32,000 nt of DNA. Source: Mycolicibacterium smegmatis. GTDB lineage: Bacteria; Actinomycetota; Actinomycetes; Mycobacteriales; Mycobacteriaceae. A program made the translations under genes and the position numbers. The stretch is from NCBI RefSeq assembly GCF_001457595.1, contig NZ_LN831039.1:4770001-4802000 (forward strand), given 5' to 3'. The notes below the pieces were generated by a model that was not told where the DNA came from, did no database searches, and saw only the letters and a program-made list of their open reading frames with translations. Below are positions 1 through 20,057 of the stretch, in pieces. Position 1 is the stretch's first letter, and each line of letters begins with the position of its first letter.

Positions 1-1499
1 TCGACGTCCTGGGTGTGCCGGGCGATCCTGATGTAGATCTCTTCCACCAGGGCCGGGTTGAGGTTCGCGGGCGGGTTCGCCTGGAATTCGACCAGGATCT
101 TCTCGGCAGCGTCGTGTGCGACGCGTTCGGCCTTGACCTCCTCGGCGCGGTCCGCCTCGTGGTCGTCGTTGAAGCGCGAGATGTGCAGCTTGCGGATCAG
201 CCACGGCAGCGTGGACCCCTGAAGCAGCAGCGTGCCGACGGCGACCACGAACGCGATCGCCTGGATGGTGGCGCGTTCGGGGAACGGTTCACCCGACTCG
301 GTGTACGCGGGGATCGCGGCGGCGGCCGCCAGCGTCACCACGCCGCGCATGCCGGTCCAGGACAGCACGACGTTCTCCTGCCAGCTCAACGTGCGGCGGT
401 CGACCATGGTGCGCCAGTTGGCCCTGCGTTTCTTCTTGCGCTGCTTGCGGACGGCCGCGCCGAGCGAACTGCGGCTTCCGTCCGGGGCCGGGACGCTGAG
501 CTTCTTCTCGACGTGTCTGGACAGCTTGTTGCGGCCGAAGATCGCGAACACCGAAAGCGGCCGGATCACCAGCACGATCAACAGCACCACGGCTGAGGCG
601 GTGATCACCTCGGTGAGGGACTCGTGCGCCTCGTTGAGATGTTCGAGGACGAACCGCAGGTGCAGGCCGATGTAGGCGAACACGAACGCCTCCAGCAGCA
701 CGTCCACCGAGTTCCACACGTAGCGTTCCTGCAGGCGGGTCTGGTAGCCCGCACCGAGGTTGCCGTTGCCGACCACGAATCCCGCGACCACGACCGCCAG
801 CACGCCGGACGCGTGCAGTTCCTCGGCGGTGATGAACGCCGCGAACGGCACCACGAGTCCCTGGACTGTTTCGAGTCCGGGATTGGCCAGGCGCTTGCGG
901 ATCCACAGCGTGACGTAGCCGAGCACCGCGCCGACGAGCGGGCCGACAGTGGCGCTGTAGCCGAACAGCAGGAGCGGGTTCTCGATGAAGATGTGGCCAC
1001 CGGCGACCTGGGTGACCGCGATGGAGAACAGCGTCAGCGCGGCCGCGTCGTTGATGAGGCTCTCACCGGTCAGGATCGCCATCATGCGTTTCGGCAGACC
1101 GAGCTTGCGGCCCACCGCCACGGCTGTGACGGCGTCCGGAGGCGCCACGATCGCGCCGAGCACCAACGCGGTCCCGAACGTCAACGGCACGATCACCAGC
1201 CAGCTCGACACCGCCGCGACCGCGAACGCCGATACCACGACCAATCCCACGCCCAGGCCGAGGATCGGGCGGATGTGTCGCAAAAACGTCGGGAACGAGA
1301 AGTTCAGTGCCGCGGAGTACAGCAGCGGCGGCAGGACGACGGACAGCAGGATGTGCGAATCGAGTTCGGGAGGTTCGAAATCGGGGAGGAAAGATACCGC
1401 GCTGCCGACCACCACGATCATCAGTGCGGGTTCGAATCCGCGGTGGTGAGCGATGGCTGTGACCAGGATGGCGCCGACGACGACAAGTAACAACTCCAC
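1..1499 (-). CDS. Na+/H+ (monovalent cation:proton) antiporter, CPA1/NhaP-YjcE family; C-terminus runs off the left window edge
   Basis: Absent from the ORF track because there is no stop in the window. Manual translation of the minus strand from GTG at 1499 gives an uninterrupted frame to position 3: VELLLVVVGAILVTAIAHHRGFEPALMIVVVGSAVSFLPDF...IVAPPDAVTAVAVGRKLGLPKRMMAILTGESLINDAAALTLFSIAV...SWTGMRGVVTLAAAAAIP. It has multiple hydrophobic helices and the PPDAV / GESLxNDA signatures typical of CPA1 exchangers. The ORFs listed on both strands here translate to R/G/H/D-rich junk. Confidence 0.8.
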   Translation of the reverse strand, partial: MELLLVVVGAILVTAIAHHRGFEPALMIVVVGSAVSFLPDFEPPELDSHILLSVVLPPLLYSAALNFSFPTFLRHIRPILGLGVGLVVVSAFAVAAVSSWLVIVPLTFGTALVLGAIVAPPDAVTAVAVGRKLGLPKRMMAILTGESLINDAAALTLFSIAVTQVAGGHIFIENPLLLFGYSATVGPLVGAVLGYVTLWIRKRLANPGLETVQGLVVPFAAFITAEELHASGVLAVVVAGFVVGNGNLGAGYQTRLQERYVWNSVDVLLEAFVFAYIGLHLRFVLEHLNEAHESLTEVITASAVVLLIVLVIRPLSVFAIFGRNKLSRHVEKKLSVPAPDGSRSSLGAAVRKQRKKKRRANWRTMVDRRTLSWQENVVLSWTGMRGVVTLAAAAAIPAYTESGEPFPERATIQAIAFVVAVGTLLLQGSTLPWLIRKLHISRFNDDHEADRAEEVKAERVAHDAAEKILVEFQANPPANLNPALVEEIYIRIARHTQDV

Positions 1500-2856: not shown

Positions 2857-3414
2857 TCAGCACTCCGTGACCACGATGCCGGCCTGCAGCAGGTCCAGCA
2901 GCCGCTGCGTCTGCTCGACCGAGCCGCTTGCGATGCAGATTCCCAGCAGGCTCGACACCACATCGTCGGCGCGGACGGCGGCGCGGAGGGCACCGGCGGC
3001 GGCGCACGCATCGACCAGGAGGCCGACGGCCGCGACGATCCGCTCGCGGGTCTCGTTGCGGTCGATCGAACCGGACTCGAGGACCACGAGTAACGACTCG
3101 GCCATCCCACGCTTCGCCCCGACGAACGCGGCGTAACGATCCATCCAGCGGCGCAGTGCCAGGGCGGGCGGGTGCGTGTCGAGCAACTCGGCGGCGCAAC
3201 CGCACACCTCCGCCAACTCCGCCCGGTACACGGCCTCGACAAGCGCCTCACGCGTGGGGAAATGGCGGTAGAGCGTGCCGATACCCACGCCCGCGGCGCG
3301 CGCGATCGCTTCGAGCGACACCGGCGCGGCGGTGGTCTCGGCGGCCCCGAATGCGGTCGCCGCCGCATCCAGCAGGCGTTCACGGTTGCGTCTGACGTCG
3401 GCCCGCTCAGCCAT
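2857..3414 (-). CDS. TetR-family transcriptional regulator
   Basis: 185 aa. N-terminal HTH: RERLLDAAATAFGAAE...VSLEAIARAAGVGIGTLYRHFPTREALVEAVY. GGAGG lies 10 nt upstream of the ATG at 3414. The stop is only 18 nt upstream of the rpiB start. Confidence 0.9.
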   Translation of the reverse strand: MAERADVRRNRERLLDAAATAFGAAETTAAPVSLEAIARAAGVGIGTLYRHFPTREALVEAVYRAELAEVCGCAAELLDTHPPALALRRWMDRYAAFVGAKRGMAESLLVVLESGSIDRNETRERIVAAVGLLVDACAAAGALRAAVRADDVVSSLLGICIASGSVEQTQRLLDLLQAGIVVTEC

Positions 3415-3416
3415 CG

Positions 3417-3463
3417 CGGAGGCACCTCCGGTTTGTTACGTTGGTAAAGCGGAGGGTCCTCCG
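3417..3463. promoter_or_regulatory. two copies of a 14-bp palindrome CGGAGG-N2-CCTCCG; candidate TetR operator pair in the TetR/AKR divergent intergenic region
   Basis: cggaggcacctccg at 3417-3430 and cggagggtcctccg at 3450-3463. Centres are 33 bp apart, about three helical turns. A further half-site cggag lies at 3469-3473. The 2-nt spacer is too short for an RNA hairpin loop, so a DNA operator is more likely. Confidence 0.45.
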
Positions 3464-3494
3464 CATTTCGGAGTATGGCACGAGGAGAATTTCT

Positions 3495-4439
3495 GTGACC
3501 ACTGAGAGCCCCGGCAGTCCTGGCATTCCCGGTGGGTCCGGCACGATCGGGACACAGCCGGTGGCCCGTGTGGGCTACGGCGCGATGGCACTCGGACCTC
3601 GCGTGCCCATCGACGACGCCGTGGTGCTGCTGCGCCGCGCCGTCGAACTGGGCGTCAACCACATCGACACCGCGTCGTTCTACGACGACGGCGAGGTGAA
3701 CCGCCGGATACGCCGGGCACTGGCCCCGTATCCCGACGATCTGGTGATCGTCAGCAAGGTCGGCGCGCGACCGGCCACCGGACCGGTGCCGCTCGCTCTC
3801 GCGCAGCGGCCCGCCGAACTACGAACTGCCGTCGAACGCGATCTCGCCGAGTTGGGCGTCGACCGGATCGCGGTGGCCAACCTGCGCCGCGCGGACATCG
3901 GCCCGGGCCTGATCGCCGAGGGCGACCAGGTGGTCGATCTCGACGATCAGCTTGCCGAGATGATCGCGCTGCGCGACGAGGGCAAGATCGCCGCGATCGG
4001 CATGAGCAACATCGATCTGGACACCGCGCGGCGGGCCGCCCCCGCAGGCATCGTGTGCATCCAGAACGCGTACAACCTGCTGGACCGGACAAGCGAGGAG
4101 CTCCTCGGATTCGCGCGGCAGCAGAACATCGCGTTCGTGCCCTATTTCCCGCTGGGCTCGGCGTTTCCCGGCTTCCCCAAGGTTTCCGACAACCCGGTGG
4201 TGCGCACGATCGCCGCCGAGTCGGGTGTCACGCCCGCCCAGATCGGCCTCGCCTGGCTGTTGGCCCATGCGCCGAACATCCTGCTCATCGCCGGAACGGC
4301 GTCGGTCGATCACCTGGAGCAGAACGTGCGCGCCGGTGACATCACGTTAAGCGACAAGGCGATCGCGGCCCTCGACGCCGTGCCCGGCGAGCGGTCACCC
4401 CACGGTGATGGCGTCGAGGCGTTCCTTGATGAAAGCTGA
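3495..4439 (+). CDS. aldo/keto reductase family oxidoreductase
   Basis: In frame with track ORF 3441-4439. I prefer GTG at 3495, preceded by GAGGAGA at 3482-3488. AKR-like sequence: GYGAMALG...AVELGVNHIDTASFYDDGEVN...VIVSKVG...GMSNIDLDTARRA...VCIQNAYNLLDR...VPYFPLG. Confidence 0.88.
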   Translation: MTTESPGSPGIPGGSGTIGTQPVARVGYGAMALGPRVPIDDAVVLLRRAVELGVNHIDTASFYDDGEVNRRIRRALAPYPDDLVIVSKVGARPATGPVPLALAQRPAELRTAVERDLAELGVDRIAVANLRRADIGPGLIAEGDQVVDLDDQLAEMIALRDEGKIAAIGMSNIDLDTARRAAPAGIVCIQNAYNLLDRTSEELLGFARQQNIAFVPYFPLGSAFPGFPKVSDNPVVRTIAAESGVTPAQIGLAWLLAHAPNILLIAGTASVDHLEQNVRAGDITLSDKAIAALDAVPGERSPHGDGVEAFLDES

Positions 4440-5354
4440 CGAGATGACCGGTTCGAGCCCCGCGGTGCGGCCGACGGGCGGCTGCAGCGGCGTCACCACC
4501 GCGTCGTGGTTGGCCTCGTAGAAGTAGATCAACGACACCAGGTCCTCTTCGGGGGCGTCCGGCTGCGGGGGCAGCACGCGGTGGCGTCCCGACGGCCACC
4601 GGCGCCCGCTCCAGTACTCCAGCAGGTCACCGATATTGACGGTCAGCGCGCCGGGCTCCCACGGCGCGTCCTCCCAGCCCTCGGCCTCGGAGTAGACCTG
4701 AAGTCCACCTGCTCCGGGCTCGCGGTCGAGTACCGTGACCGTTCCGAAGTCGGTGTGCGGACCGATGCGGAACTGGCCTGGCTCGGGCTCCCCCACGGCG
4801 GTCAACGGTGGGTAGTGGTTGATGTTCATCGTCCACGTCGGTCGATCTGCCAGCGCCACAAAGGGATTCGCCGGGAGCCCGAGGGCGTGGGAGAACAGGT
4901 CCAACAAATCGTCGGAGAGTTTCCGCATCGCGGCGGTGTATTCGGCCACCAACGGCTGCAGCGCGGGCACTTCGATGGGCCAGACGTTGGGCGCGTACCA
5001 GATCCGGTCCACCTCGGCATCGCCGGTCGCGGTGTCCGACCCCAGGCTGAAGCTCTCTTTCAGGTCGGGTGGTGTCTCGGTGCCTTCGGCGTACCCGTTG
5101 GCCTCGGCACCCGGCCCGATCCAGCCGCGACCGCCGACGGGCACCGAGTACCGCCGCTTCGTCGCGTCCGGCAGGGCGAAGAAGTCGCGGCTCGCGGCGC
5201 GGACACGCGCGGCGAGGGCGGGGTCGACGTTGTGGCCGGTGACGACGATGAATCCCGCGCGCTGCAGGCCGGCGTCGACCTCGGCGGCCACCGCGTCGGC
5301 CTCGGCGCCGCCGGCATACCACCGTGAAAGATCAACTGTGGCAATGGCACTCAC
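4395..5354 (-). CDS. 2-oxoglutarate/Fe(II)-dependent oxygenase (isopenicillin N synthase-like family)
   Basis: Track ORF 4395-5420. I prefer GTG at 5354, which overlaps the upstream deaminase stop (GTGA). Facial triad visible: GPHTDFG (HxD) and distal SGRHRV. The N-terminal DIOX_N-like segment is IATVDLSRWYAGG...AGFIVVTGHNV. Confidence 0.85.
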   Translation of the reverse strand: MSAIATVDLSRWYAGGAEADAVAAEVDAGLQRAGFIVVTGHNVDPALAARVRAASRDFFALPDATKRRYSVPVGGRGWIGPGAEANGYAEGTETPPDLKESFSLGSDTATGDAEVDRIWYAPNVWPIEVPALQPLVAEYTAAMRKLSDDLLDLFSHALGLPANPFVALADRPTWTMNINHYPPLTAVGEPEPGQFRIGPHTDFGTVTVLDREPGAGGLQVYSEAEGWEDAPWEPGALTVNIGDLLEYWSGRRWPSGRHRVLPPQPDAPEEDLVSLIYFYEANHDAVVTPLQPPVGRTAGLEPVISSAFIKERLDAITVG

Positions 5355-5791
5355 TCGCCGATGTCCTCCGCCCACAGATCCGGTTTCGCCGCGATGAAAT
5401 CCTGCATCATCTTCACGCACCGCTGGTCATCCAGCAACGTGACAGCGACGCCGTGCTCGGCCAGCCACTCGTGACCGCCGGAGAATGTGCGTGCCTCACC
5501 GATGAGAAGGGCACCGATGTTGAACTGACGGACCAGGCCGCTGCAGTACCAGCACGGTGACAGCGTCGTCACCATGATGGTGTCGCGGTAGCCGCGTTGC
5601 CGGCCTGCGGCACGGAAGGCATCCGTCTCCGCGTGCACCGATGGGTCCCCCTGCTGCACCCGCCGGTTGCGCCCGCGGCCCAACAGCTCACCGTCGGCGC
5701 TGAACAGGGCGGCGCCGATCGGAATGCCGCCTTCGGCCAAGCCTTTTTGCGCCTCTTCGACCGCGACGTCGAGCATCTCCCCGGGACTCAT
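5351..5791 (-). CDS. CMP/dCMP-type zinc deaminase (cytosine/guanine/nucleoside deaminase family)
   Basis: Track ORF 5351-5824. ATG at 5791 is preceded by GGAAGGG with about 7 nt spacing, whereas GTG at 5824 has no RBS. Zinc ligand motifs HAETDAF (HAE) and PCWYCSG (PCxxC) are present. Confidence 0.85.
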   Translation of the reverse strand: MSPGEMLDVAVEEAQKGLAEGGIPIGAALFSADGELLGRGRNRRVQQGDPSVHAETDAFRAAGRQRGYRDTIMVTTLSPCWYCSGLVRQFNIGALLIGEARTFSGGHEWLAEHGVAVTLLDDQRCVKMMQDFIAAKPDLWAEDIGE

Positions 5792-5921
5792 GGCTGCACC
5801 CTTCCATCGTTCATTCCTCGCCACACAGCGACAGACGGCCGATCAGGCGAGCACCGATCACGGCGATCCGGAGGTGATTCGGCCTCGGCGGAAAGGTCGG
5901 CAGCGCTCGCGGGCGTCGTCA

Positions 5922-5957
5922 TGCGTTACACCGTGGCCCCAACTGCGGTGTAACGCA
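5922..5957 (-). terminator. hairpin downstream of the GntR gene (12-bp perfect stem, 12-nt loop)
   Basis: tgcgttacaccg (5922-5933) pairs perfectly with cggtgtaacgca (5946-5957). It lies 27 nt past the GntR stop at 5984-5986. There is no U-tract, as is common in mycobacteria. Confidence 0.5.
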
Positions 5958-5983
5958 AGCTGAACACACAGGCTGTCTCGACG

Positions 5984-6661
5984 TCAGTCGGGTTCAGCGA
6001 CCGCGAGCAACTCGCGGGCGCTGGCGACGATGTGTCCGTCGAGGGCCGACCGGCGCACCTCGGTACCGCCCGTGGTGATCGCCTCGAGCAACGCACGGTG
6101 TTCTTCGGGAATCGCGAACGGGCTCTCGTGACGTTTGGCGAGCCGGTGGATCTGCATTCGGATGCGCGGCTGGACGCTGGCCCACAGTTGCATCGCGTGT
6201 TCGGAATGCGCGCTCCTGACGATCGTCTCGTGGAACAGCACGTCGAGTTCGTTCAGCTGTTCCAGGTCACCGGCGCCTGCCGCATCGTCCATGAGCGCCA
6301 CCAGACGCCGGAGTTCGGCGAGCACCGCCGGATCGGCACTGGCCTTCTCGACCGCGAACTGCTCGATGGACAGCCGCACCGGCAGCAACACCCCCAGCAG
6401 TTCGTCGGCGCTCACGGTGGCCACGAACGCGCCCCGATTGGGGATGTGGTGCACCAGCCCTTCGCTTTCCAGCTGCCGTAGCGCTTCGCGCACCGGGCCG
6501 GGGCTCGTGCTCAGATGCGCGGCCAGCACGTCCTGCTTGAGCTGCGCACCCGGCGGCAGACCGCCCTTGACGATCTGCTCACGTAGCCAGTCCGCGATCT
6601 GGTGCCGCCGCGACGAGGCCAACGGGGCGGCGACCGCCAGAGGTTGCAACGCCTCCGTCAT
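5984..6661 (-). CDS. GntR-family regulator, FadR/FCD subfamily
   Basis: Track ORF 5984-6679. ATG at 6661 is preceded by GAAGGAGAAGG. The winged-helix segment is IADWLREQIVKGGLPPGAQLKQDVLAAHLSTSPGPVREALRQLESEGLVHHIPNRGAFV, followed by an all-helical FCD-like C-terminal domain. Confidence 0.9.
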   Translation of the reverse strand: MTEALQPLAVAAPLASSRRHQIADWLREQIVKGGLPPGAQLKQDVLAAHLSTSPGPVREALRQLESEGLVHHIPNRGAFVATVSADELLGVLLPVRLSIEQFAVEKASADPAVLAELRRLVALMDDAAGAGDLEQLNELDVLFHETIVRSAHSEHAMQLWASVQPRIRMQIHRLAKRHESPFAIPEEHRALLEAITTGGTEVRRSALDGHIVASARELLAVAEPD

Positions 6662-6774
6662 GATCCTTCTCCTTCGCAAGGGTCGCCAGGGTCGCCCGCT
6701 GGCGCCATCCTAGGCAGCCGCGCCTGCTCGCGAGCGTGCTGACACAGTTGCCGACGCACTATTGCGCCGATTAC

Positions 6775-6790
6775 AGATTATAGATAATCT
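6775..6790. promoter_or_regulatory. AT-rich 16-bp palindrome AGATTAT-AG-ATAATCT; candidate GntR operator overlapping divergent -10 elements
   Basis: 7-bp perfect arms. This is the only strongly AT-rich patch in the intergenic region. The minus strand reads a perfect TATAAT (6782-6777) pointing towards the GntR gene. The plus strand reads TAATCT (6785-6790, TANNNT) pointing towards the ABC operon. Confidence 0.45.
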
Positions 6791-6862
6791 CTGATCCACT
6801 CACAGTCGCCCGTCGGCCCCACCCGGCCCATCGGTGAAACATCCTGCGGATAAAGGAAACCC

Positions 6863-7678
6863 ATGCGTAGACGCACCCGTGCGGCGATCGCCGCCCTCGC
6901 CGCCACCACCGCGCTCGTTCTGGCCGGTTGCACCTCGTCGGACCAGGCGGGCCCGACCCAGAACAGCACGTTGACGAAAGTGCTGAATTCCAAGAAGCTC
7001 ACCGTCGGCGTCTTCGCGGACGCGCCCCCGTACGGCGTGATGAACAGCTCGGGCGAATACCAGGGCTTCGACATCGACAAGGCCCGTGCGCTGGCCGACT
7101 CCCTCGGCGCCGACGTCCAGTTCGTCAGCACCACCAACGCGAGCCGAATCCCCATGCTGGAGACGGGGAAAGCAGATGTCATCATCGCCGCGCTCACCAA
7201 CCTCGATGAGCGAGCCCAGGTGGTCGCACTGACCAGGCCGTACGCCTCGGAGGGCCAGCTGGTCGTGGTGCCGGCCGACAGTCCCATCCAGGGCTACGAC
7301 GACCTCGCGGGCCGCACGGTCGCCGCCACCCGCGGCAGCGTGCCCGCCACCATCCTCGAAACCGAATTCCCGCAGGCCAAGCCCAGCCTGTTCGAAGCCG
7401 TCGCCGACTCGATCCAGGCGCTGCGCAGCGGCAAGGTCGACGCGCTCATGGAGAGCACGGCTGTCGTCGCCGAGATCCGTGCGAGCCAGAAAGATGCGGT
7501 ACGCGTTCTCGACGCTCCCCCACTGGCACCGTCGTTCGTGTCCTTCGGCGTGAAGATGGGCGATCAACTCTGGCTGAACTACCTCAACAACTTCATCCTC
7601 AACTACAACATCAGCAAGGCGGCGAACGAGTCATACAACAAATGGCTCGGCATGGACGTACCAGAGCTCATCAAGTAG
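6863..7678 (+). CDS. ABC transporter substrate-binding lipoprotein, polar amino acid (SBP_bac_3) family
   Basis: 271 aa. Signal peptide with lipobox LVLAGC. Family-3 SBP-like sequence: KLTVGVFADAPPYGVMNSSGEYQGFDIDKARALA...GKADVIIAALT. The RBS AAGGAAA lies upstream. Confidence 0.9.
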   Translation: MRRRTRAAIAALAATTALVLAGCTSSDQAGPTQNSTLTKVLNSKKLTVGVFADAPPYGVMNSSGEYQGFDIDKARALADSLGADVQFVSTTNASRIPMLETGKADVIIAALTNLDERAQVVALTRPYASEGQLVVVPADSPIQGYDDLAGRTVAATRGSVPATILETEFPQAKPSLFEAVADSIQALRSGKVDALMESTAVVAEIRASQKDAVRVLDAPPLAPSFVSFGVKMGDQLWLNYLNNFILNYNISKAANESYNKWLGMDVPELIK

Positions 7679-7708
7679 TCACTGCGCCCACCACGTTCAG
7701 GACACACC

Positions 7709-8371
7709 ATGCAGCTCTACTACGGCGATCTCGTCCCGTACCTCATACCACTGCTCAAAGGGCTCGCGGTCAGCATCGCGGTGAGCCTGGCCGCGACCGC
7801 GATCGGTGGCGCGTTCGGGATCCTGCTCTATGCGGGACGAACCGCACGGCTCAACGCGTTCCGTGTCGCGGCCTCGGCCTACATCGAGGTCATCCGCAAC
7901 ACGCCCCTGCTGCTGCAGCTCTACCTCGTGTACTTCGCGCTGCCGCACGCCGGGGTCAACCTCGATCCTGTCACGGCAGGCATACTGGCCCTGAGCATCA
8001 ACAACTCGGCCTACATGGCCGAGATCTACCGGGCCGGGTTCCAATCTGTTCCCGCGGGACTCCGCGAAGCCGCAGCCGCACTCGGTATGAGCCCGCGCGA
8101 CACGTTCTGGCGAGTGCTGTTCATCCCGGCCATGCGAAATGTCCTGCCCGCCATCACCAACCAGACGATTCTGCTGTTCCTCGCGTCGTCGATCACGTCG
8201 GTCGTGTCCCTGCCCGATCTGATGCACGTGATGATGGGCATCACCTCGACGACGTTCCGCACCATCGAGGCCTTCACCGTGGGCGGCCTGCTGTACTTCG
8301 CCGTCGCGTTCCTCATCGCAAGTTTCTCGCGAGTCGTCGAGACCCGATTCATCAAGTGGAAGGTGGCGTGA
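7709..8371 (+). CDS. amino acid ABC transporter permease (His/Glu/Gln/Arg/opine family)
   Basis: 220 aa, polytopic. The EAA-like region is [32 protein letters not shown]. Confidence 0.9.
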
Positions 8372-9078
8372 TGTTCGAGGGACTCGGCACCCAACATCTG
8401 ACACTGATCTGGCATGGAGCCCTGGTCACCGTGCAGATCTGCACTCTCTCAGTACTTTTCGGAGGCGCACTGGGAATCGTCATCGGTTTGATGTCGACAG
8501 CACCAATACGGGTGCTGCGGTGGGTGGCAGCGCTCTACGTAGCGGTGATCCGCGGCATACCGGTGTTGTTGATCATCTTCTTCGTCTACTTCGGCATCCC
8601 TCTACTCGCGCCGGGCAGCAGCCTCTCGGAGTACTGGGCTGCCGTGATCGCGCTGTCGGTGTTCGCCTCGGCCTATGTCGGCGAACTGGTGCGCGGCAGC
8701 ATCCAAGCGGTCCCGCACGGGCAGTTCGAGGCGGCCGACGCACTCGGGTTGTCCTACGCACAGCGCATGCGCTGGGTGATCCTGCCGCAGGCGGCGCGAG
8801 TGATCGTGCCGCCGGGCGTCGGGTTCCTGGTGGTGCTGATCAAGGACAGTTCGCTGGTGGCGGTCATCGGCCTCATCGAACTGACGCGGGCCGGAAACGT
8901 GGTCAGCTCGCTGACCGCCGACCCGATCACCACCTATCTGATCGTCGGCGCGTGTTACTTCGTCATCTGCTATGCGCTCTCGTCGCTGGGGCGCCGCTAC
9001 GAGCGCCGACTCGGCGTTCACGTCAAAGCCCCCGAGGTCGGCGACGCCCTCAAACTCACCACAGGAGCGAAGAAATGA
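8371..9078 (+). CDS. amino acid ABC transporter permease, second subunit
   Basis: This is the real part of track ORF 7642-9078 and starts at ATG 8371, overlapping the previous stop (TGATG). Sequence: [22 protein letters not shown]...[33 protein letters not shown]. Confidence 0.88.
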
Positions 9079-9803
9079 TCAAGGTCGACGGACTGCGGTT
9101 GAGCTTCGGCGACACCGAGGTGCTGCATGGTGTTTCGTGCACCGTGGCCGAAGGCGAGGTGGTGTGCATCATCGGGGCTTCCGGATCGGGTAAGAGCACC
9201 CTGCTGCGCTGTATGAACGGGTTGGAGCGCCCGTCGCACGGCACGATCGTCATCAACGGCCACACCCTCGGACCGCAGGAGAAGACGGCCGACCTGGCGG
9301 TGGTGCGCCGCGACGTGGGCATGGTGTTCCAGCACTTCAATCTCTTCCCACACATGACCGTCATGGACAACATCACTCTGGCGCCTCGTCGCGTGCTCAG
9401 GCGCAGCAGGGACGAGGCGCAGGAGCGGGCGCGCACCCTGCTGTCCAGAGTGGGACTGGCCGACAAGGCCGACGTCTATCCCGATTCCCTGTCGGGTGGC
9501 CAGAAGCAGCGTGTGGCCATCGCCCGTGCGCTCGCGATGGACCCGACCATCATGCTGTTCGACGAACCGACATCGGCACTGGACCCCGAAATCGTGGGTG
9601 AGGTGCTGACTGTGATGAAAGACCTTGCCGCCGAGGGTATGACGATGGTCGTGGTGACCCACGAGATGGGCTTCGCCCGCGAGGTGTCCGACCGGGTGAT
9701 CTACATGGACAAGGGCACCATCGTCGAAACCGCCGGACCGACGGAACTGTTCACCTCGCCTGAGGAAGCCCGTACGCGCGAGTTCCTCAGCAAGGTGCTC
9801 TGA
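9075..9803 (+). CDS. amino acid ABC transporter ATP-binding protein
   Basis: ATG at 9075 overlaps the permease stop (ATGA). Walker [10 protein letters not shown], signature [15 protein letters not shown], Walker [13 protein letters not shown] and the H-loop VVTHEM are all present. Confidence 0.93.
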
Positions 9804-9804
9804 C

Positions 9805-11394
9805 ATGCCCGCACTGGACTTCCTGCTGACCGGGGCACAGATCGTCGACGGCACCGGAGCTCGCGCCCGTCGCGCCGATATCGGGCTGCGCGGTGACCGC
9901 ATCGAGTTCGTCGGTTTGTCACCCGACGCCAAGGCCGTCACCACCGTGGACTGCACCGGCATGCTCATCACCCCGGGACTCATCGACCCACACAGCCACA
10001 GCGACTGGTCGGCACTGGGCAATCCCGACGCGTTCAGCACGATCCACCAGGGCGTCACCACCGAGGTGGTCGGCAACTGCGGGGTCACCTACGCGCCCAT
10101 CGGCGACGACGACGTCGACGCGACCGCGGGCGCCCTGCGCGCGATGGGCTACCAGGGACCGATCGACTGGCGTGACTTCGGCGAGTACGTGGCCCGTGTG
10201 CACTCGGGGCCCACGGCGCAGAACCTCATGTGGTTCGTCGGGCACACCGCGCTGCGCTCCGCGGCGCGACGAGCCACCGACGGGCTGCGCGAACAGATCC
10301 GCTTGCTCGAAGACGCCATGGACGCCGGCGCGATCGGCTTCTCCAGCGGCCTCGAGTACGGCTCGGGACGGTTCGCCACGACCGAGGAACTCGTCGCCCT
10401 GGCCCGGGCGGCGGGACGACGGGATGGCATGTACGCCAGTCACATCCGCAACCGCGATGCCGACCTGGACGCGGCCGTCGAGGAATTCTTCACGATCGTG
10501 ACCGCGGGCGGGGTCCGCGCGCAGCTGTCGCATCTCAACGTCCGCCACGACACCGGTGCCCCACCGGGTGCCTGGGCTCGGGCCGCCGACCGGGTGGTCG
10601 CCGAAAGACGTCGCGGGACTGACGTACTCGCGGACATGACACCCTATCCCCACGGCATCGGCATGGCCACCGGACTGCTGCCGGGCTGGCTGGTCGAGCG
10701 CCCCGCCGCCGAGGTCGCGGCGCTGCTCGGTGACCGCGAGATCCGGGACCGGGTCCGCCTCGACGGCGACCGCTATTGGCGGTTCGTACATCGCGGCCAG
10801 TGGCACCGGGTGCGCCTCGGCGTCAGCACCACCCATCCGGAATGGGAAGGTCTGTCGTTCCCCGAGATCGCCGAACGGCACGGCACCGACGAGTGGGAAT
10901 GCCTGTTCGACATTCTCGCCGCGGCCGGGGCGGAGATGGGCGGCGTCCAGTTGCTCGGTGATCTGTTCAGCGCGGACCATCTGGCCGAGGCCATCGGCCA
11001 TGATCACTTCTTGCTCGGTGTCGACGCCTTCACGACATGCCGTCATGGTGCGCTCGACGGCAGAACACGCAATCCGCTGTTCTATCACGGGCATACGCAC
11101 TATCTGGCTCATCACGTGCCTGCGGGGACCCTGACGTTGGAGACCGCGATCCACAAGATGACCGGAAAGGTCGCCGAACATTTCGACATGCGTGACCGGG
11201 GAGAACTTCGGGCGGGCGCATTCGCCGACATCGTCGTCTTCGATCCGGCCGTCATCGACCGCACCGACACCTGGGGTCTGCCGACCCGATATGCCGAGGC
11301 GGCCCGTCACGTGTGGGTCAACGGCGTACCCGTCGTCACCGACGCTGTCCACACCGGCCGAAGGCCTGGAGTCATGCTCACCCACCGGTCGTGA
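9805..11394 (+). CDS. N-acyl-D-amino-acid deacylase (D-aminoacylase) family amidohydrolase
   Basis: 529 aa, starting 1 nt after the ATPase stop. Motifs: IDPHSHSD (HxH), VVGNCGVTYAP (the Cys metal ligand typical of D-aminoacylases), YASHIRN and QLSHLNV (distal His ligands). The small N- and C-terminal beta-barrel segments typical of the family are present. Confidence 0.85.
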   Translation: MPALDFLLTGAQIVDGTGARARRADIGLRGDRIEFVGLSPDAKAVTTVDCTGMLITPGLIDPHSHSDWSALGNPDAFSTIHQGVTTEVVGNCGVTYAPIGDDDVDATAGALRAMGYQGPIDWRDFGEYVARVHSGPTAQNLMWFVGHTALRSAARRATDGLREQIRLLEDAMDAGAIGFSSGLEYGSGRFATTEELVALARAAGRRDGMYASHIRNRDADLDAAVEEFFTIVTAGGVRAQLSHLNVRHDTGAPPGAWARAADRVVAERRRGTDVLADMTPYPHGIGMATGLLPGWLVERPAAEVAALLGDREIRDRVRLDGDRYWRFVHRGQWHRVRLGVSTTHPEWEGLSFPEIAERHGTDEWECLFDILAAAGAEMGGVQLLGDLFSADHLAEAIGHDHFLLGVDAFTTCRHGALDGRTRNPLFYHGHTHYLAHHVPAGTLTLETAIHKMTGKVAEHFDMRDRGELRAGAFADIVVFDPAVIDRTDTWGLPTRYAEAARHVWVNGVPVVTDAVHTGRRPGVMLTHRS

Positions 11395-11434
11395 ACCTCA
11401 CGACAGCACCCTCACTCAAGGAGCACCGAAACCC

Positions 11435-12571
11435 ATGAAGATCACCGACATTCAGACGTGCGGCCTGCGCGGCGCCACTCCAGAGGGCGGCTGGTCCAAC
11501 GAGCTGCGGCCCGACGACGTCGTCCACACCTTGGTCGCCGTACACACCGATACCGGCCAGGTCGGCATCGGCAGCGCGTTCACCACCGAGGGGTTGGTGG
11601 CGGCCGCCGTGGATCTGCTCGCGCCACAGCTGATCGGTCAGAGCGCGCTGGAGGCCGAACGGCTCACCGAGACGCTGCACCAGAGCGCGTTCTGGATGGG
11701 CCGCGGCGGTTCGCTCACCCACGCCACCAGCGCGATAGACATCGCGTTGTGGGATCTGGCCGGGCAGGCTCTCGGGCAGCCGGTCGGGCGGCTGCTGGGT
11801 GGCCGCTATCGCGATCGGGTACGCCCATACGCCTCGGTGCTCATGGACGAGGCCCCGGCGATGACCGAGAACCTGTCGGAGCTTGTCGACCAGGGCTTCA
11901 CCGCGTTCAAGATCGGCTGGTGGAAGTTCGGCCGCGTGGACGCGCAAACCGACGAGCGCACCGTGGCCGCTGCGCGGGAGGCCGTCGGCGATCATCTGCT
12001 GGCGGTCGACGCCGGTGGATCCGAGGCGTTCTTCCCGGGCGGCCTGTCGTGGGCGAAACGCACCGCCGACATGCTGGCCGACTATGGCGTCGCATGGTTC
12101 GAGGAGGCGCTGGCACCCGACGACCTCGACGGGTTCACGGAACTGCGAAGGCATTCCAAGATTCCGATCAGCGGTGGTGAGGTGCTCACGCGCCGGCAGA
12201 CCTTCCTTCCGTTCCTGGATGCGGGGGCCTTCGACATCGTGCAGCCGGACACCACGAAGGGCGGTGGTCTCAGCGAGTCACGCCGCATCGGCTGGGCGGC
12301 CCAGGACCGCGGCATCAGGTTGGTACCGCACGGCTGGAACACCGCGGTGGGGTTGGCCGCCGATCTGCATCTGGCATCCGCACTGGCCGCCACCGATCTC
12401 GTCGAGTACAAGACCGGATCGGCATACATCGACGAACTCGTCTGCGCCGGATGGGAGCTCGACCGCGACGGAATGCTCGCGATTCCGGAGACACCGGGGC
12501 TCGGCATCACGCTGGATCCGGCCGCCCTCGAGCGCTACGGCACTCGGCCTTCCTTCGCCGATCCGCGATGA
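11435..12571 (+). CDS. enolase-superfamily enzyme (mandelate racemase/muconate lactonizing enzyme family; acid-sugar dehydratase-like)
   Basis: This is the real part of track ORF 11192-12571. ATG at 11435 follows AAGGAGCA. Candidate metal ligands are LAVDAGG (D), WFEEAL (E) and ISGGEVL (E). The candidate Asp/His dyad is FDIVQPD and LVPHGWN. The capping domain is HATSAIDIALWDLAGQALGQPVGRLLGG. Confidence 0.85.
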   Translation: MKITDIQTCGLRGATPEGGWSNELRPDDVVHTLVAVHTDTGQVGIGSAFTTEGLVAAAVDLLAPQLIGQSALEAERLTETLHQSAFWMGRGGSLTHATSAIDIALWDLAGQALGQPVGRLLGGRYRDRVRPYASVLMDEAPAMTENLSELVDQGFTAFKIGWWKFGRVDAQTDERTVAAAREAVGDHLLAVDAGGSEAFFPGGLSWAKRTADMLADYGVAWFEEALAPDDLDGFTELRRHSKIPISGGEVLTRRQTFLPFLDAGAFDIVQPDTTKGGGLSESRRIGWAAQDRGIRLVPHGWNTAVGLAADLHLASALAATDLVEYKTGSAYIDELVCAGWELDRDGMLAIPETPGLGITLDPAALERYGTRPSFADPR

Positions 12572-13188
12572 ACGACGTGTTCGATCATCGCGTGATCCCG
12601 CTCGCCACCGTGCGGGATCCGGGTCACGTCGACGTGATCGGCGACGGTCTCGTCGACGGGGGCCTGCCCGTGGTCGAGGTCGCGCTGCGTGGTGAGTACG
12701 GTCTGGCCGCGATCCGCAGACTGTCGGCGCGGGGCGACATTCTGGTGGGCGCGGGGACCGTCCGCTCGGTCGCGCAGGCCGCTGACGCGATCGAGGCAGG
12801 CGCACGGTTCATCGTGTCTCCCAACCTCGACGATGATGTCGTCGAGTTCGTCGGCCGCGCCGGGCTGGCGGTCATCCCCGGCGTGCTGACGCCCACCGAG
12901 GTGGGCAACGCCGTGCGGCTCGGCCTGCACAGGCTCAAGTTGTTTCCGGCCGCTGCCGTCGACGCCCGCGCGCTGCTCACCGCGTATCGCGCGGTCTTTC
13001 CCGACGTGGCCTTCATGCCCTCGGCAGGCATCACCGCGGCATCGATGGCGGAACTGTTGGAACTGCAGGCGGTTTTCGCCGTCAGCGGCAGCTGGATCAC
13101 CGCAGCGGCCGCGAGAGGCGCGACCGCGGTGGCCGAGGAGGCACGGGCCGCCGTCACGATCGCGACCGGAGGACGGTGGCGCGCGTGA
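12568..13188 (+). CDS. 2-dehydro-3-deoxy-phosphogluconate/-galactonate aldolase (KDPG/KHG aldolase, Eda/DgoA family)
   Basis: ATG at 12568 overlaps the previous stop (ATGA). Motifs: VIPLATV, VVEVALR, GAGTV, FIVSP, IPGVLTPTE, and LKLFPA carrying the Schiff-base Lys. Confidence 0.85.
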   Translation: MNDVFDHRVIPLATVRDPGHVDVIGDGLVDGGLPVVEVALRGEYGLAAIRRLSARGDILVGAGTVRSVAQAADAIEAGARFIVSPNLDDDVVEFVGRAGLAVIPGVLTPTEVGNAVRLGLHRLKLFPAAAVDARALLTAYRAVFPDVAFMPSAGITAASMAELLELQAVFAVSGSWITAAAARGATAVAEEARAAVTIATGGRWRA

Positions 13189-14144
13189 CTCCCCTATTCG
13201 ACGTCGTCACGGTCGGTGAGAGTCTCGGCCTGCTCACGGCATCACGGTCCGGTCGCCTCCACCACAACCGCGATCTGCGACTGGGATTCGGTGGCGCCGA
13301 GAGCAATGTGGCGATCGGAGTCGCTCGGCTGGGCGCAACGGCGGCCTGGATCGGCCGGGTGGGCGACGACAGCCTCGGCGAACTCATCGTGCGCGAATTA
13401 CGGGCCGAGGGGGTCCACGCCTTCCCGGTGGTCGACCGCGGCGCCTCGACCGCGCTGATGATCAAGGAACACCCATATCCGGGCGCCGCCCGCATCACCT
13501 ATTACCGTCGCGGGCAGGCCGGCAGCCGACTGCAGCCGCGTGACGTGCCCGACAGCGTCGTGTCGGACACGAAAATCCTTCATCTCACCGGCATTTCGGC
13601 GGGCTTGGGTGCCTCCACGCTGGCCACGGCCCATGCCGCGGCGGACGCCGCGGCTTCGGCGGGTGCGACGATCTCCTTCGATGTCAACCATCGCACCGCA
13701 CTGTGGCAGGACCGCGGCGCGGCCTCGGCGGCCTACCTCGAACTCGCCCGCCGGGCGCATATCGTGTTCGCCGGGGAAGAGGAGGCCTTCCTGCTCACCG
13801 GGATCGACACCGCTCATGGCCAACTCGATGCCCTGTTGAGCCTCGGCGTCGACTGCGCGGTGATCAAACTCGGCGCGGACGGCGCGATCGCTGCCACCGC
13901 CACGGACAGGCTCTCGGCCCCGGCCGTGCCGGTGCCGGTGGTGGACACCGTCGGCGCGGGAGACGCCTTCGTCGCGGGGTGGCTGGCAGAACTCGCCGGT
14001 GGCGCCGGCGTTGGACTGTGCCTGGACACCGCGGTGGCCTGTGGCGCGTTCGCCTGCACGGGTGAAGGCGACTGGGAATCGGCGCCGGGCCGCGACGACC
14101 TCGACTGGCTGCGCCGCGGCCCGGCCGATCCCGTTCTGCGTTAG
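13185..14144 (+). CDS. PfkB-family sugar-acid kinase (2-dehydro-3-deoxygluconokinase/-galactonokinase-like)
   Basis: Track ORF starts at 13176. GTG at 13185 overlaps the aldolase stop (GTGA) and lies 11 nt after GGAGGA. The N-terminal [10 protein letters not shown] and the C-terminal [15 protein letters not shown]/anion-hole motif are present. Confidence 0.85.
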
Positions 14145-19922: not shown

Positions 19923-20057
19923 GGAGCCTCCGGAGAGACAGTCCACCACGGATCACTGCCGATCGCACGATAATTCTTCGGGTGTTCGCAGGTCAGTCCG
20001 ATGAACACCAGGTGACGGGCCCGTCCTCGCCCGGCGGGCGGCCGCAGATCAGGAACA

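Follow-up and report, generated by a model that had tools for sequence, protein, structure and literature searches.

A Mycolicibacterium smegmatis operon that pairs a divergent D-aminoacylase-fold amidohydrolase with a mandelate racemase-type enolase: candidate catabolic unit for an amide-linked sugar acid

Introduction

Which compound is degraded by an operon in which an amino-acid-type importer and a D-aminoacylase-like amidohydrolase stand together with enzymes of sugar-acid breakdown? This question is raised by a locus of Mycolicibacterium smegmatis at positions 5984-14144 of a 32,000-nt stretch of genomic DNA (hereafter the window, from whose start all positions are counted), where eight genes lie opposite a gene for a GntR-type regulator. 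Here we report a comparative genomic analysis of this locus, centred on its amidohydrolase and on an enolase-superfamily enzyme of the mandelate racemase (MR) subgroup, here termed enol1. The enzyme families of the operon are each well known; their combination is undescribed, and both central enzymes fall outside the characterised specificities of their families. In architecture this is a conventional catabolic operon whose parts come from known superfamilies, but the specificity of the two central enzymes is probably new. We propose, with moderate confidence, that it is a catabolic unit, repressed by a GntR/FCD regulator, for a small carboxylate that has both an amide bond and a sugar-acid skeleton and that is fed into cleavage of the KDG (2-keto-3-deoxygluconate) and KDPG (2-keto-3-deoxy-6-phosphogluconate) type.

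In Pseudoalteromonas prydzensis, oxidised chitin (GlcNAc1A) is processed by the ong pathway, which includes the deacetylase OngB, the deaminase OngC, the RidA protein OngD and the kinase KdgK (PMC9537276, PMC12017989). A sequence-only reading of the M. smegmatis locus had assigned it to N-acylated amino-sugar acids and had drawn this parallel correctly. The nine genes of that reading lie at the coordinates it gave, and Pfam searches bore out their families. Its picture of one regulated catabolic unit is supported, with eight co-directional, tightly packed genes (6863-14144) facing a GntR/FCD gene.

Results and Discussion

Conserved gene pair and accessory module

The two central genes encode the amidohydrolase, which has the D-aminoacylase fold (subtype V) and represents a distinct clade (9805-11394, plus strand; Pfam Amidohydro_3, phmmer and an AlphaFold2 model), and enol1 (11435-12571, plus strand; MR_MLE_C 192 bits, MR_MLE_N 55 bits). 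The 40-nt gap between them contains an AAGGAG ribosome-binding site ahead of the enolase ATG. A profile scan for the amidohydrolase, with one genome per species, gave 80 loci, which were compared with the window proteins by tblastn; 67 of the 80 carry both motifs that mark the clade, SHLNVR at residues 242-247 (SH[LM]N[VI][RK]) and DRYWRF at residues 322-327. An MR-type enolase homologue is present in 36 of the 43 clade loci that are well flanked, that is, have at least 5 kb on both sides (84%); it lies within 3 kb in 19 and is directly adjacent in 13. Of the 13 loci without both motifs, only one has an MR enolase. The functional coupling of the two enzymes on which the sequence-only reading was built is thus supported.

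The gene order from gntR to the enolase gene is the same in six other Mycolicibacterium species, with 70-93% protein identity, and the nearest homologues come from Mycolicibacterium of the fortuitum group (82-96% identity). The amidohydrolase and the orthologous enolase (62-80% identity) stay adjacent in Saccharothrix, Microbacterium, Streptomyces, Saccharopolyspora, Pseudonocardia, Isoptericola, Nakamurella and a metagenome-assembled genome (MAG) of the Nocardioidaceae. Across 15 loci, the identities of the two proteins to their window counterparts fall in parallel (r = 0.95), a pattern of joint inheritance that shared genome ancestry could also give. The gene arrangement is not due to chance, as the gene order recurs in Mycolicibacterium and the amidohydrolase-enolase pair across Actinobacteria.

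In the window, enol1 is followed by genes for an Eda-type KDPG/2-keto-4-hydroxyglutarate (KHG) aldolase (12568-13188, plus strand; Pfam Aldolase 146 bits) and a KDG-kinase-like PfkB kinase (13176-14144, plus strand, alternative GTG start at 13185; PfkB 166 bits). The enolase and aldolase genes share an ATGA overlap, and the aldolase/kinase junction is GTGA if the kinase starts at 13185. Both genes occur in M. setense, M. peregrinum and M. wolinskyi. The loci of M. porcinum, M. brisbanense and M. canariasense lack them and stop at the enolase gene; in the first two of these species, an Rv2466c-like gene directly follows, within ~25 nt of the enolase stop. Because both genes are gone from these three species, the conserved core of the operon consists of the regulator, a carboxylate/amino-acid-type importer, the amidohydrolase and the enolase, and the aldolase and kinase are an add-on. 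We therefore dropped the idea, taken from the sequence-only reading, that a 'dgo-like' kinase/aldolase pair belongs to the conserved design. The aldolase-kinase pair (window 12568-14144 compared with loci L001, L005 and L006) shows a clean presence/absence polymorphism within the M. fortuitum group, and in the window the kinase stop and the stop of the Rv2466c-like gene overlap convergently by 4 nt (14141-14144).

The possible pathway core is distributed over Actinobacteria and Proteobacteria, with related amidohydrolase-enolase pairs in Gaiellales and gut Clostridia. In Gaiellales, the enolase accompanying the clade amidohydrolase is from a different subfamily (~30% identity), and the cluster adds an Opp/Dpp-type ATP-binding cassette (ABC) transporter, an S15 CocE/NonD hydrolase, an AstE-like gene, an HpcH-type aldolase and a gamma-glutamyltranspeptidase. 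Genes for CE14 (PIG-L) and CE4 deacetylases neighbour the amidohydrolase in Nakamurella and in a Clostridia MAG.

The same profile scan found amidohydrolases of 32-41% identity in gut and rumen Clostridia MAGs (L057, 17-4099; L065, 6927-13662; L073, 3494-11019). The Clostridia contexts are an MR enolase with GH127, a TAXI-type tripartite ATP-independent periplasmic (TRAP) transporter with a CE7 acetyl esterase, and a PfkB kinase with a CE4 deacetylase. Since products of lytic polysaccharide monooxygenases (LPMOs) are unlikely in these anaerobic habitats, these amidohydrolases probably have more than one substrate.

Amidohydrolase with an intact metal site and lost carboxylate anchors

The AlphaFold2 model of the window amidohydrolase (pLDDT 89.6, pTM 0.91) matches the solved D-aminoacylases 3gip/1m7j with a TM score of 0.89 and PpOngB, the GlcNAc1A deacetylase of P. 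prydzensis, with 0.86; in phmmer comparisons the solved D-aminoacylases scored ~190 bits and OngB 143 bits. The features of subtype V (cog3653), a metal site of this kind on a (beta/alpha)8 barrel with a beta-sandwich and an alpha/beta insertion domain, are all in place: H63 and H65 of the HxH motif, C92 in GNCG, H213, H243 and the catalytic D407 align with the ligands of AfDam, and the Tyr next to the amide oxygen is kept. On the intact HxH motif, GNCG Cys and two distal His, the sequence-only reading was right.

The site that holds the substrate carboxylate differs. In AfDam numbering, the canonical site consists of the side chains of Lys252, Tyr283 and Arg377 and the backbone of Ser289. In the PpOngB structure, Lys254, Tyr285 and Arg379 with the Ser291 backbone anchor the alpha-carboxylate and are strictly conserved in the OngB-like and both D-aminoacylase-like groups (PMC12017989), and a 2025 D-acylase study found a Tyr/Arg/Ser 'c-site' likewise highly conserved in characterised members (PMC12149444). 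Profile alignment to AfDam and BbDam places N245, T279, L425 and I285 at the corresponding positions of the window protein, by the changes SHHK to SHLN (N245), YPY to TPY (T279) and HPR to NPL (L425), and these residues are invariant or nearly so in 29 family members. With all three side-chain anchors lost, the protein does not qualify as the canonical D-aminoacylase for which it had been taken, and because the carboxylate site is missing, its current annotation as an N-acyl-D-amino-acid deacylase is probably wrong in detail.

A 7-residue insertion follows D407 and adjoins the Leu that contacts the acetyl methyl; Leu111, the counterpart of Leu116, which makes the acetyl-methyl contact in OngB, is conserved. 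A GlcNAc1A deacetylase is expected to carry, beyond the D-aminoacylase anchors, Ser292, Gln298, Glu226, Ala193, Ala256 and Gly348 (PpOngB numbering). When transferred through the AfDam alignment, Glu226, Ala193 and Ala256 correspond to R217, E184 and R247, which, together with the lost anchors and the lower score to OngB, places the window protein outside the OngB family. The region of Ser292 and Gln298 falls in the insertion domain, which has no residue-level alignment to solved structures; residues 290-404 are covered by the fold comparison only. By its SHLNVR and DRYWRF motifs, the window amidohydrolase belongs to a separate clade.

Homologues from canonical contexts, used as controls, keep most anchors (Haladaptatus, Azospirillum with Gln for Lys, Deinococcus and a Rokubacteria MAG); three of them came from a plasmid search with the amidohydrolase, which returned distant homologues only (30-34% identity). 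The Haladaptatus and Azospirillum homologues adjoin genes annotated 'alanine racemase', from the fold-type-III pyridoxal phosphate (PLP) family that includes OngC, with or without RidA or an SSS symporter. The Deinococcus homologue has alongside it a menC gene resembling the racemase of N-succinyl amino acids (NSAR), a GNAT gene, a Dpp-type ABC transporter and dipeptidases.

Two of these plasmid-borne clusters are ong-like and lie outside the Gammaproteobacteria. On a Haladaptatus plasmid (L093, 7998-12526), the canonical-anchor homologue is joined by the 'alanine racemase' gene and an SSS symporter; on an Azospirillum thermophilum plasmid (L095, 4428-13213), the homologue with Gln for Lys is joined by the 'alanine racemase' gene, RidA and a Dpp-type ABC transporter. 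Both may represent pathways for GlcNAc1A or D-hydroxy-amino acids.

Enolase enol1 and its gene contexts

The MR-subgroup residues of enol1 are K159 (FKIGW), D192, E223/E224, E249, D272 (QPD) and H299 (PHGWN), conserved in all 19 aligned members. By motif analogy with mandelate racemase, they would supply the Lys at the end of strand 2, the three acidic metal ligands at the ends of strands 3-5 and the His-Asp dyad on strands 7 and 6. The capping-loop motif GLRGATPEGGWSxE is strongly conserved. The nearest named models are those of acid-sugar dehydratases (galactonate, gluconate and arabinonate), all far under their cut-offs: the galactonate dehydratase model NF010624 gave 172.6 bits at a cut-off of 311, and NF040790 gave 150 at a cut-off of 750, so that enol1 is not an equivalog of these dehydratases. 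Its best solved relative, 3sjn from Shewanella, has no function assigned, and the family is very large, with more than 8000 members. In a neighbour-joining tree, the window enol1 groups with the amidohydrolase-linked enzymes of Saccharothrix and Microbacterium and with many Streptomyces enzymes of ~80% identity.

Orthologues found in other contexts share 57-61% identity with the window enol1. In plasmid pA of Cereibacter sphaeroides, in Martelella and Microvirga and in a metagenome contig, the cluster contains a Dpp-type ABC transporter, an AstE/AspA-family deacylase, an M81 MlrC peptidase, a second enolase (enol2) and a short-chain dehydrogenase/reductase (SDR). Among named families, the alpha-proteobacterial deacylase comes closest to DoeB, an N-acetyl-diaminobutyrate deacetylase, and the cluster SDR scores ~290-300 bits to 6D9Y, which is the closest structure to L-2-keto-3-deoxyrhamnonate (L-KDR) 4-dehydrogenase according to a 2024 paper (PMC11199699). 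Paraburkholderia has gntR, enol1, an SBP_bac_3 binding protein, a permease, an ATPase, a 6D9Y-type SDR and enol2, and no hydrolase; a Rhodospirillales MAG has SBP_bac_3, permease and enol1. In Angulomicrobium, SBP_bac_3, permease and enol1 are joined by an FAH hydrolase, an SDR and a CBAH-type Ntn amide hydrolase, and in Rhodoferax the set is SBP_bac_5, two S15 hydrolases, GntR, enol1 and two SDRs.

Thus enol1 pairs with amide hydrolases of five unrelated folds (the window-type amidohydrolase, AstE/DoeB-like, M81 MlrC, S15 CocE/NonD and CBAH). These hydrolases, together with the amino-acid and peptide importers beside enol1, suggest that the enol1 substrate is often delivered in amide linkage. 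The downstream partners are all of the 2-keto-3-deoxy-acid type: KdgK- and Eda-type enzymes in the window, Microbacterium and Proteus, and elsewhere the L-KDR-dehydrogenase-like SDR, FAH and the HpcH aldolase. Because such partners act on 2-keto-3-deoxy acids, they point to a beta-eliminating enzyme and not a racemase, and enol1 is a probable dehydratase that would give a 2-keto-3-deoxy acid.

Two further genes travel with enol1. Members of the enol2 orthogroup (L081, 5122-6297; L090, 12899-14071; L018, 13748-15007; L061, 5378-6568) are 53-64% identical to the Paraburkholderia copy (L090), which matches PDB 2hzg of Rhodobacter sphaeroides, a protein of no known function, at 554 bits; the Cereibacter copy is 64% identical. 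Through enol2, two enolases stand in one cluster in Actinobacteria and in alpha- and beta-proteobacteria. An SDR orthogroup, SDR-A, is found alongside enol1, whether or not the amidohydrolase is there too, in Streptomyces, Microbacterium, Isoptericola, Klebsiella and Proteus (L085, 7289-8077; L008, 14657-15442; L010, ~12808; L012, ~12866; L025, ~12785; L082, 7224-8024; L089, 5942-6730). Its members are 45-59% identical to the S. viridosporus copy, and their top named models are L-rhamnose and glucose 1-dehydrogenases.

We considered and rejected the amidohydrolase and SDR-A as mutually exclusive feeders of enol1, as targeted tblastn puts SDR-A directly downstream of enol1 in Microbacterium and in three loci that have both the amidohydrolase and a transporter of the metabolite/H+ symporter (MHS) family. 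A role of the amidohydrolase as lactonase for an aldonolactone made by an SDR was also rejected, as the amidohydrolase always has a carboxylate/amino-acid importer of its own and the window has no dehydrogenase; moreover, we know of no lactonase in this amidohydrolase fold subtype.

Importer and binding proteins

The importer genes are those of a lipoprotein substrate-binding protein (SBP) of a polar-amino-acid-type ABC importer (6863-7678, plus strand; Pfam SBP_bac_3 111 bits, LAGC lipobox), two permeases of the BPD_transp_1 family, of which the first is of the HEQRo 3-TM type (7709-8371 and 8371-9078, plus strand; TIGR01726 98 and 91 bits at a cut-off of 42), and a GlnQ/TcyN/EhuA-like ATPase (9075-9803, plus strand; ABC_tran 136 bits; GlnQ model 312 bits, under its cut-off of 379). 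The SBP and first permease genes are separated by a 30-nt gap, the permease genes meet in a TGATG overlap, the second permease and ATPase genes in an ATGA overlap, and 1 nt separates the ATPase gene from the amidohydrolase gene. The SBP_bac_3 protein, HEQRo-type permeases and GlnQ/HisP-like ATPase are those of a polar amino acid (PAAT) importer, with mixed ligand contacts: the SBP keeps the carboxylate-binding Arg (TNLDER, R117), while its canonical alpha-ammonium Asp is replaced by Ser, with a Glu one position before (DALMES). Its best solved relative is AncCDT-1, a binder of cationic amino acids.

The transporter beside the amidohydrolase is always of the carboxylate, amino-acid or peptide type (an SBP_bac_3 ABC importer, an MHS-family member of the major facilitator superfamily (MFS), a Dpp/Opp ABC transporter or TAXI-TRAP). 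In relatives it may be the same SBP_bac_3 ABC importer, a second SBP_bac_3 protein with one permease, or an MHS permease of the MFS (ProP/TcuC/ShiA-like). The second SBP_bac_3 orthogroup, found in Nocardioidaceae, Nakamurella, Paraburkholderia and two alpha-proteobacteria (38-49% identity), has intact the two contacts typical of amino-acid binders, the carboxylate Arg and the alpha-ammonium Asp. It directly adjoins enol1 in Actinobacteria as well as in alpha- and beta-proteobacteria, and two of these clusters have no hydrolase. The presence of amino-acid-type importers beside enol1 in several phyla, sometimes without a hydrolase, favours an amino-acid-like sugar acid.

Regulator and candidate operator

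The divergent gntR gene (5984-6679, minus strand) encodes a regulator of the FadR subfamily, with an N-terminal GntR winged helix-turn-helix domain (Pfam GntR 57 bits) and a C-terminal FCD domain (66 bits); the gene probably starts at the ATG at 6661, which stands behind a GAAGGAG. Orthologues of 80-91% identity occupy the same position in six Mycolicibacterium loci, and the protein is 41-43% identical to the regulators of the amidohydrolase-linked enolase cluster of Pseudonocardia and the SDR-linked cluster of Streptomyces viridosporus. A palindrome located in the gntR/SBP intergenic region (6775-6790) is perfect, AT-rich and 16 bp long (AGATTAT-AG-ATAATCT; mycobacterial form AGATTATAGATAATCT) and occurs once in the window. 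Five of the six other Mycolicibacterium loci carry it unchanged, and the sixth has a single-base difference. The Arthrobacter counterpart is AGTTTATAAATAATCT, and a related operator-like palindrome, ATTGTCGACAAT, is common to the amidohydrolase-linked cluster of Saccharothrix and the SDR-linked cluster of Streptomyces. This conserved palindrome is a candidate operator of the GntR/FCD regulator. Simple promoter and terminator scans of the locus gave no signal over the shuffled background.

Aldolase and kinase

No enzyme of the operon reaches an NCBIfam equivalog cut-off, and the aldolase alone barely passes the eda subfamily model (TIGR01182, 157.0 bits at a cut-off of 156.05; the DgoA-type model gives 94 bits). 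The Lys of its LKLFPA motif, which we take to be the Schiff-base Lys, and the Glu of EVALR are present, and by score, Lys and Glu the protein is an Eda-type KDPG/KHG aldolase. The kinase carries the GAGDAF motif and certainly belongs to the PfkB family; models of KDG and KDGal kinases score 160-162 bits at cut-offs of 400-440, and the IolC model 175 at 300. An Eda-like aldolase and a PfkB kinase, rather than enzymes of DgoA and DgoK types, point to a KDG-type (gluco- or manno-configured) product, which supports the route of KDG kinase and KDPG aldolase type that had been proposed from the sequence.

Proposed pathway

The regulator would bind the AT-rich palindrome between the divergent genes and be released by the substrate or an intermediate. 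The lipoprotein SBP, the two permeases and the ATPase would import the compound; the SBP keeps the carboxylate Arg and has lost the free-amine Asp. The amidohydrolase, with its intact Cys/His/His metal site and Asp and its rebuilt carboxylate and acyl pockets, is predicted from its family to cut the amide. To judge by its family and the downstream enzymes, enol1 would then take the freed acid, abstract the proton by the carboxylate and eliminate the beta substituent, giving a KDG-type 2-keto-3-deoxy-hexonate. In the window species, the PfkB kinase would phosphorylate this product and the Eda-type aldolase would split it into pyruvate and glyceraldehyde-3-phosphate; sister species have no kinase and aldolase in the cluster, and in other taxa an SDR, an FAH hydrolase or an HpcH aldolase would serve instead.

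Several observations weigh against this proposal. The closely related Streptomyces enol1 enzymes (~80% identity) have a GntR/FCD regulator and an SDR as sole partners and no amide hydrolase. On Klebsiella plasmids, enol1 is accompanied by a sugar porter, an SDR and GntR, again with no amide hydrolase, and in Proteus mirabilis a DgoT-like (D-galactonate-transporter-family) MFS permease stands by enol1, the opposite strand encodes GntR, SDR, KdgK (347 bits) and Eda, and the cluster has no amide hydrolase. These clusters of Proteus, Klebsiella and Streptomyces look like plain sugar or sugar-acid clusters, and because orthologues of 57-80% identity sit in hydrolase-free clusters such as these, enol1 may be an ordinary aldonate dehydratase. 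The kinase and aldolase are dispensable in three sister species, SDR-A was not found in the 32-kb window by tblastn, and no RidA-type gene accompanies the clusters; searches of the window for homologues of RidA, OngC-like proteins, AstE, M81 and S15 found none. Without the canonical carboxylate site, the amidohydrolase would have to bind an N-acyl-alpha-amino-acid substrate in a new way. The full-text literature searched yielded no published description of the pairing of the amidohydrolase clade with enol1 or of a substrate link.

Amine or acid fragment as the substrate of enol1

The proposed catabolic unit can be read in two principal ways, according to which fragment of the amide passes to enol1. 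We lean slightly towards the amine fragment, in which case an N-acyl compound would yield an amino-deoxy-aldonate, D-glucosaminate for example, because canonical homologues of the amidohydrolase adjoin genes resembling fold-type-III PLP deaminases, as in the ong pathway (PMC9537276), and an enolase stands in that place here. The lean also rests on the second SBP_bac_3 orthogroup, which has the Arg and Asp and directly adjoins enol1, and on DoeB, the closest named family of the alpha-proteobacterial deacylase, which is an N-acetyl-amino-acid deacetylase.

In the version of the sequence-only reading, the substrate is the N-acyl or N-acetyl form of D-glucosaminate or D-galactosaminate, and enol1 acts as a PLP-independent deaminating dehydratase that gives KDG and ammonia. 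We hold this version tentatively. The order of steps matches that of OngB, OngC and KdgK, the aldolase and kinase are of the Eda/KdgK and not the DgoA/DgoK type, and SBPs with both Arg and Asp stand by enol1 without a hydrolase in Paraburkholderia and the Rhodospirillales MAG. The CE14/CE4 deacetylase neighbours in Nakamurella and the Clostridia MAG, the conserved Leu111 and the DoeB-like deacetylase fit as well, and a natural supply of N-acetyl-glucosaminate is known. In cis-3-hydroxy-L-proline dehydratase, the enolase superfamily has a member that dehydrates a beta-hydroxy alpha-amino acid, a precedent from outside the MR subgroup; within that subgroup, we know of no enzyme that acts on an alpha-amino substrate, which counts against this version.

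Further points are also adverse to N-acyl-glucosaminate. The anchors with which OngB holds the alpha-carboxylate of exactly this substrate are all replaced, and the amidohydrolase is nearer to D-aminoacylases than to OngB in both score (190 and 143 bits) and fold (TM 0.89 and 0.86). The Proteus cluster has a DgoT-like anion permease and no deacylase, and ordinary sugar porters occur in the clusters of Klebsiella and Microbacterium. RidA is absent, and the window SBP has no ammonium-binding Asp, which would fit the N-acyl form and not a free amino acid. Finally, most chitinolytic Streptomyces have SDR, GntR and enol1 only, and the cluster is not widespread among them.

It appears doubtful, though possible, that the SHLNVR/DRYWRF amidohydrolases and enol1 are the core of a widespread undescribed pathway in which enol1 dehydrates 2-amino-2-deoxy-aldonates, among them D-glucosaminate, without PLP and with release of ammonia. 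If they were, soil actinobacteria would own a route for the N-acetyl-glucosaminate that LPMOs and sugar oxidases produce. This would be the first pathway known from actinobacteria for the acids that oxidative cleavage of chitin yields, and a PLP deaminase would have been replaced non-orthologously by an enolase-superfamily enzyme with a reaction new to the superfamily and to the MR subgroup. Conceivably, the amino group is at C3 and is itself eliminated as the leaving group, which would equally explain the shifted carboxylate site.

The chief rival passes on the acid fragment: the amidohydrolase would free a plain aldonate from an N-aldonoyl amide, for example an N-aldonoyl amino acid or amine, with C1 of the sugar acid as the scissile carbonyl, and enol1 would be a conventional aldonate dehydratase giving KDG. 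This requires canonical MR-subgroup chemistry only, in line with the nearest models of enol1 (galactonate, gluconate and arabinonate dehydratases), and it accommodates the hydrolase-free clusters with a DgoT-like permease, a sugar porter or SDRs resembling rhamnose and glucose 1-dehydrogenases. Loss of the anchors and an insertion of 7 residues by the acyl-pocket Leu are what would be expected if the acyl side were a sugar acid, and an SBP that has the carboxylate Arg and lacks the free-amine Asp would suit an N-acylated amino acid. However, we are not aware that N-aldonoyl amides form an abundant class in nature, and the literature searched yielded none; five unrelated hydrolase families would need to accept such acyl groups; D-aminoacylases and DoeB, the nearest characterised relatives of two of these families, take off small acyl groups, and it is the amine part that goes on; and SBPs with a canonical ammonium site beside enol1 in clusters without a hydrolase fit poorly with a plain aldonate. 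We regard an N-aldonoyl amide as rather unlikely; if it were the substrate, the operon would reveal an unrecognised class of natural sugar-acid conjugates and their hydrolases. Under either reading, a function would be gained for thousands of genes annotated 'N-acyl-D-amino-acid deacylase family' and 'mandelate racemase/muconate lactonizing enzyme family'.

Salvage of D-amino acids or D-peptides, by a D-aminoacylase or D-dipeptidase and an NSAR-like racemase/epimerase of the enolase superfamily with the kinase and aldolase as passengers, is very improbable. The distant Deinococcus homologue, with its NSAR-like 'menC', GNAT, Dpp-type transporter and dipeptidases, and the peptide-type importers and peptidases of the Gaiellales and alpha-proteobacterial versions would suit it, and enol1 retains the two bases that a racemase would require, with a beta2 Lys and the His-Asp dyad. 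Yet enol1 falls in the MR subgroup next to acid-sugar dehydratases and not in the muconate lactonizing enzyme (MLE)/NSAR group, its partners in every context process 2-keto-3-deoxy acids, its gene shares an ATGA overlap with the aldolase gene, and the amidohydrolase has no carboxylate site for D-amino acids. A chance fusion of an amino-acid importer and acylase with a sugar-acid module, without a common substrate, would account for the coming and going of the aldolase/kinase pair in close relatives and for enolase orthologues without an amidohydrolase, but it is hardly credible given the adjacency and correlated divergence of the pair across actinobacterial orders, the MR enolase in 84% of clade loci, even from a different subfamily, and the one regulator with one conserved operator-like palindrome serving the whole unit.

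Comparison with known systems

In its logic, the window cluster is nearest to the ong pathway among characterised systems. The two have in common an amidohydrolase of D-aminoacylase fold with the Cys/His/His site, followed by an enzyme that gives, or in the window is predicted to give, a 2-keto-3-deoxy acid, a PfkB kinase that is KdgK in ong and KDG-kinase-like in the window, and a repressor. Its eliminating enzyme is of the enolase superfamily, whereas that of ong is a fold-type-III PLP enzyme; it has an ABC importer instead of an SSS symporter and lacks RidA, GH20 and a TonB receptor, and its amidohydrolase is ~24% identical in sequence to OngB and lacks the anchors Lys254, Tyr285 and Arg379. 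Canonical D-aminoacylases have the same fold over the full length (TM 0.82-0.89) and the HxH motif, GNCG Cys, two His, Asp and the Tyr by the amide oxygen in common with the window protein at 28-31% identity. They differ from it in the c-site, where Tyr (YP), Arg (HPR) and Lys (SHHK) are replaced in the window by T279, L425 and N245, in the 7-residue insertion after the Asp, in its longer alpha/beta insertion domain with the invariant DRYWRF...W.R, and in its genomic partner, which is an MR enolase and not a PLP deaminase or NSAR.

Part by part, the nearest systems are the De Ley-Doudoroff D-galactonate operon dgoRKADT and the semi-phosphorylative Entner-Doudoroff pathway with its enolase-superfamily gluconate dehydratase. 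They have, like the window, a FadR-type GntR regulator, an enolase-superfamily dehydratase, a keto-deoxy-acid kinase and a class I aldolase, and Proteus matches the dgo layout exactly around its enol1 orthologue, with a DgoT-like permease. In the window, by contrast, the DgoD score is 173 bits at a cut-off of 311, the kinase is PfkB and not DgoK, the aldolase is Eda-like and not DgoA-like, the importer is of amino-acid type, an amidohydrolase is inserted, and the kinase and aldolase are optional. Non-phosphorylative routes for 6-deoxy-sugar and pentose acids, the nearest systems for relatives of the cluster, combine an enolase-type dehydratase, an SDR 4-dehydrogenase and FAH (PMC11199699). The relatives in Cereibacter, Martelella, Paraburkholderia, Angulomicrobium and Nocardioidaceae resemble them in having enol1 and then an L-KDR-dehydrogenase-like SDR and/or FAH; they differ from them in carrying amino-acid/peptide importers and amide hydrolases, and the window in having a kinase and aldolase.

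The dga operon of Salmonella serves D-glucosaminate, with uptake by the phosphotransferase system, and includes the aldolase DgaF. If the amino-aldonate reading is right, it would share with the window its end products (KDPG, then pyruvate and glyceraldehyde-3-phosphate) and its aldolase family. It differs in that phosphorylation precedes deamination and in that it lacks an amidohydrolase, an enolase-superfamily enzyme and an ABC importer; its ammonia-lyase for D-glucosaminate-6-phosphate, DgaE, is PLP-dependent (PMC9529869). Without the defining features of the D-aminoacylases and OngB or of DgoD, the window cluster is a member of none of these systems.

Genomic surroundings

The operon is flanked by ordinary mycobacterial genes. 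Upstream are an Fpg/Nei glycosylase, RpiB, a TetR/aldo-keto-reductase pair, a 2-oxoglutarate (2OG) oxygenase and a deaminase; downstream are an Rv2466c-like nitroreductase, DUF732, PepN, an alpha-amylase-family enzyme, a large NAD-glutamate dehydrogenase, an ABC-F protein and CtaG. In M. tuberculosis, rpiB lies next to Rv2466c, and the segment that separates rpiB from the Rv2466c-like gene in the window (2857-14144) therefore looks like a variable island. It holds the TetR/aldo-keto-reductase pair, the 2OG-Fe(II) oxygenase gene, whose end overlaps with a gene of cytidine-deaminase type, and the operon. Between the deaminase gene and gntR, five related species have an extra 464-aa gene (L001, 4721-6115), which the window lacks. 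An HNH endonuclease gene (19278-19949, minus strand) lies beside DUF5130 among housekeeping genes. Three open reading frames (ORFs) with high GC3 and without a Pfam match, at 22001-22840 (minus strand), 232-675 (plus strand) and 985-1449 (plus strand), encode 279, 147 and 154 aa and may be real genes or shadow ORFs.

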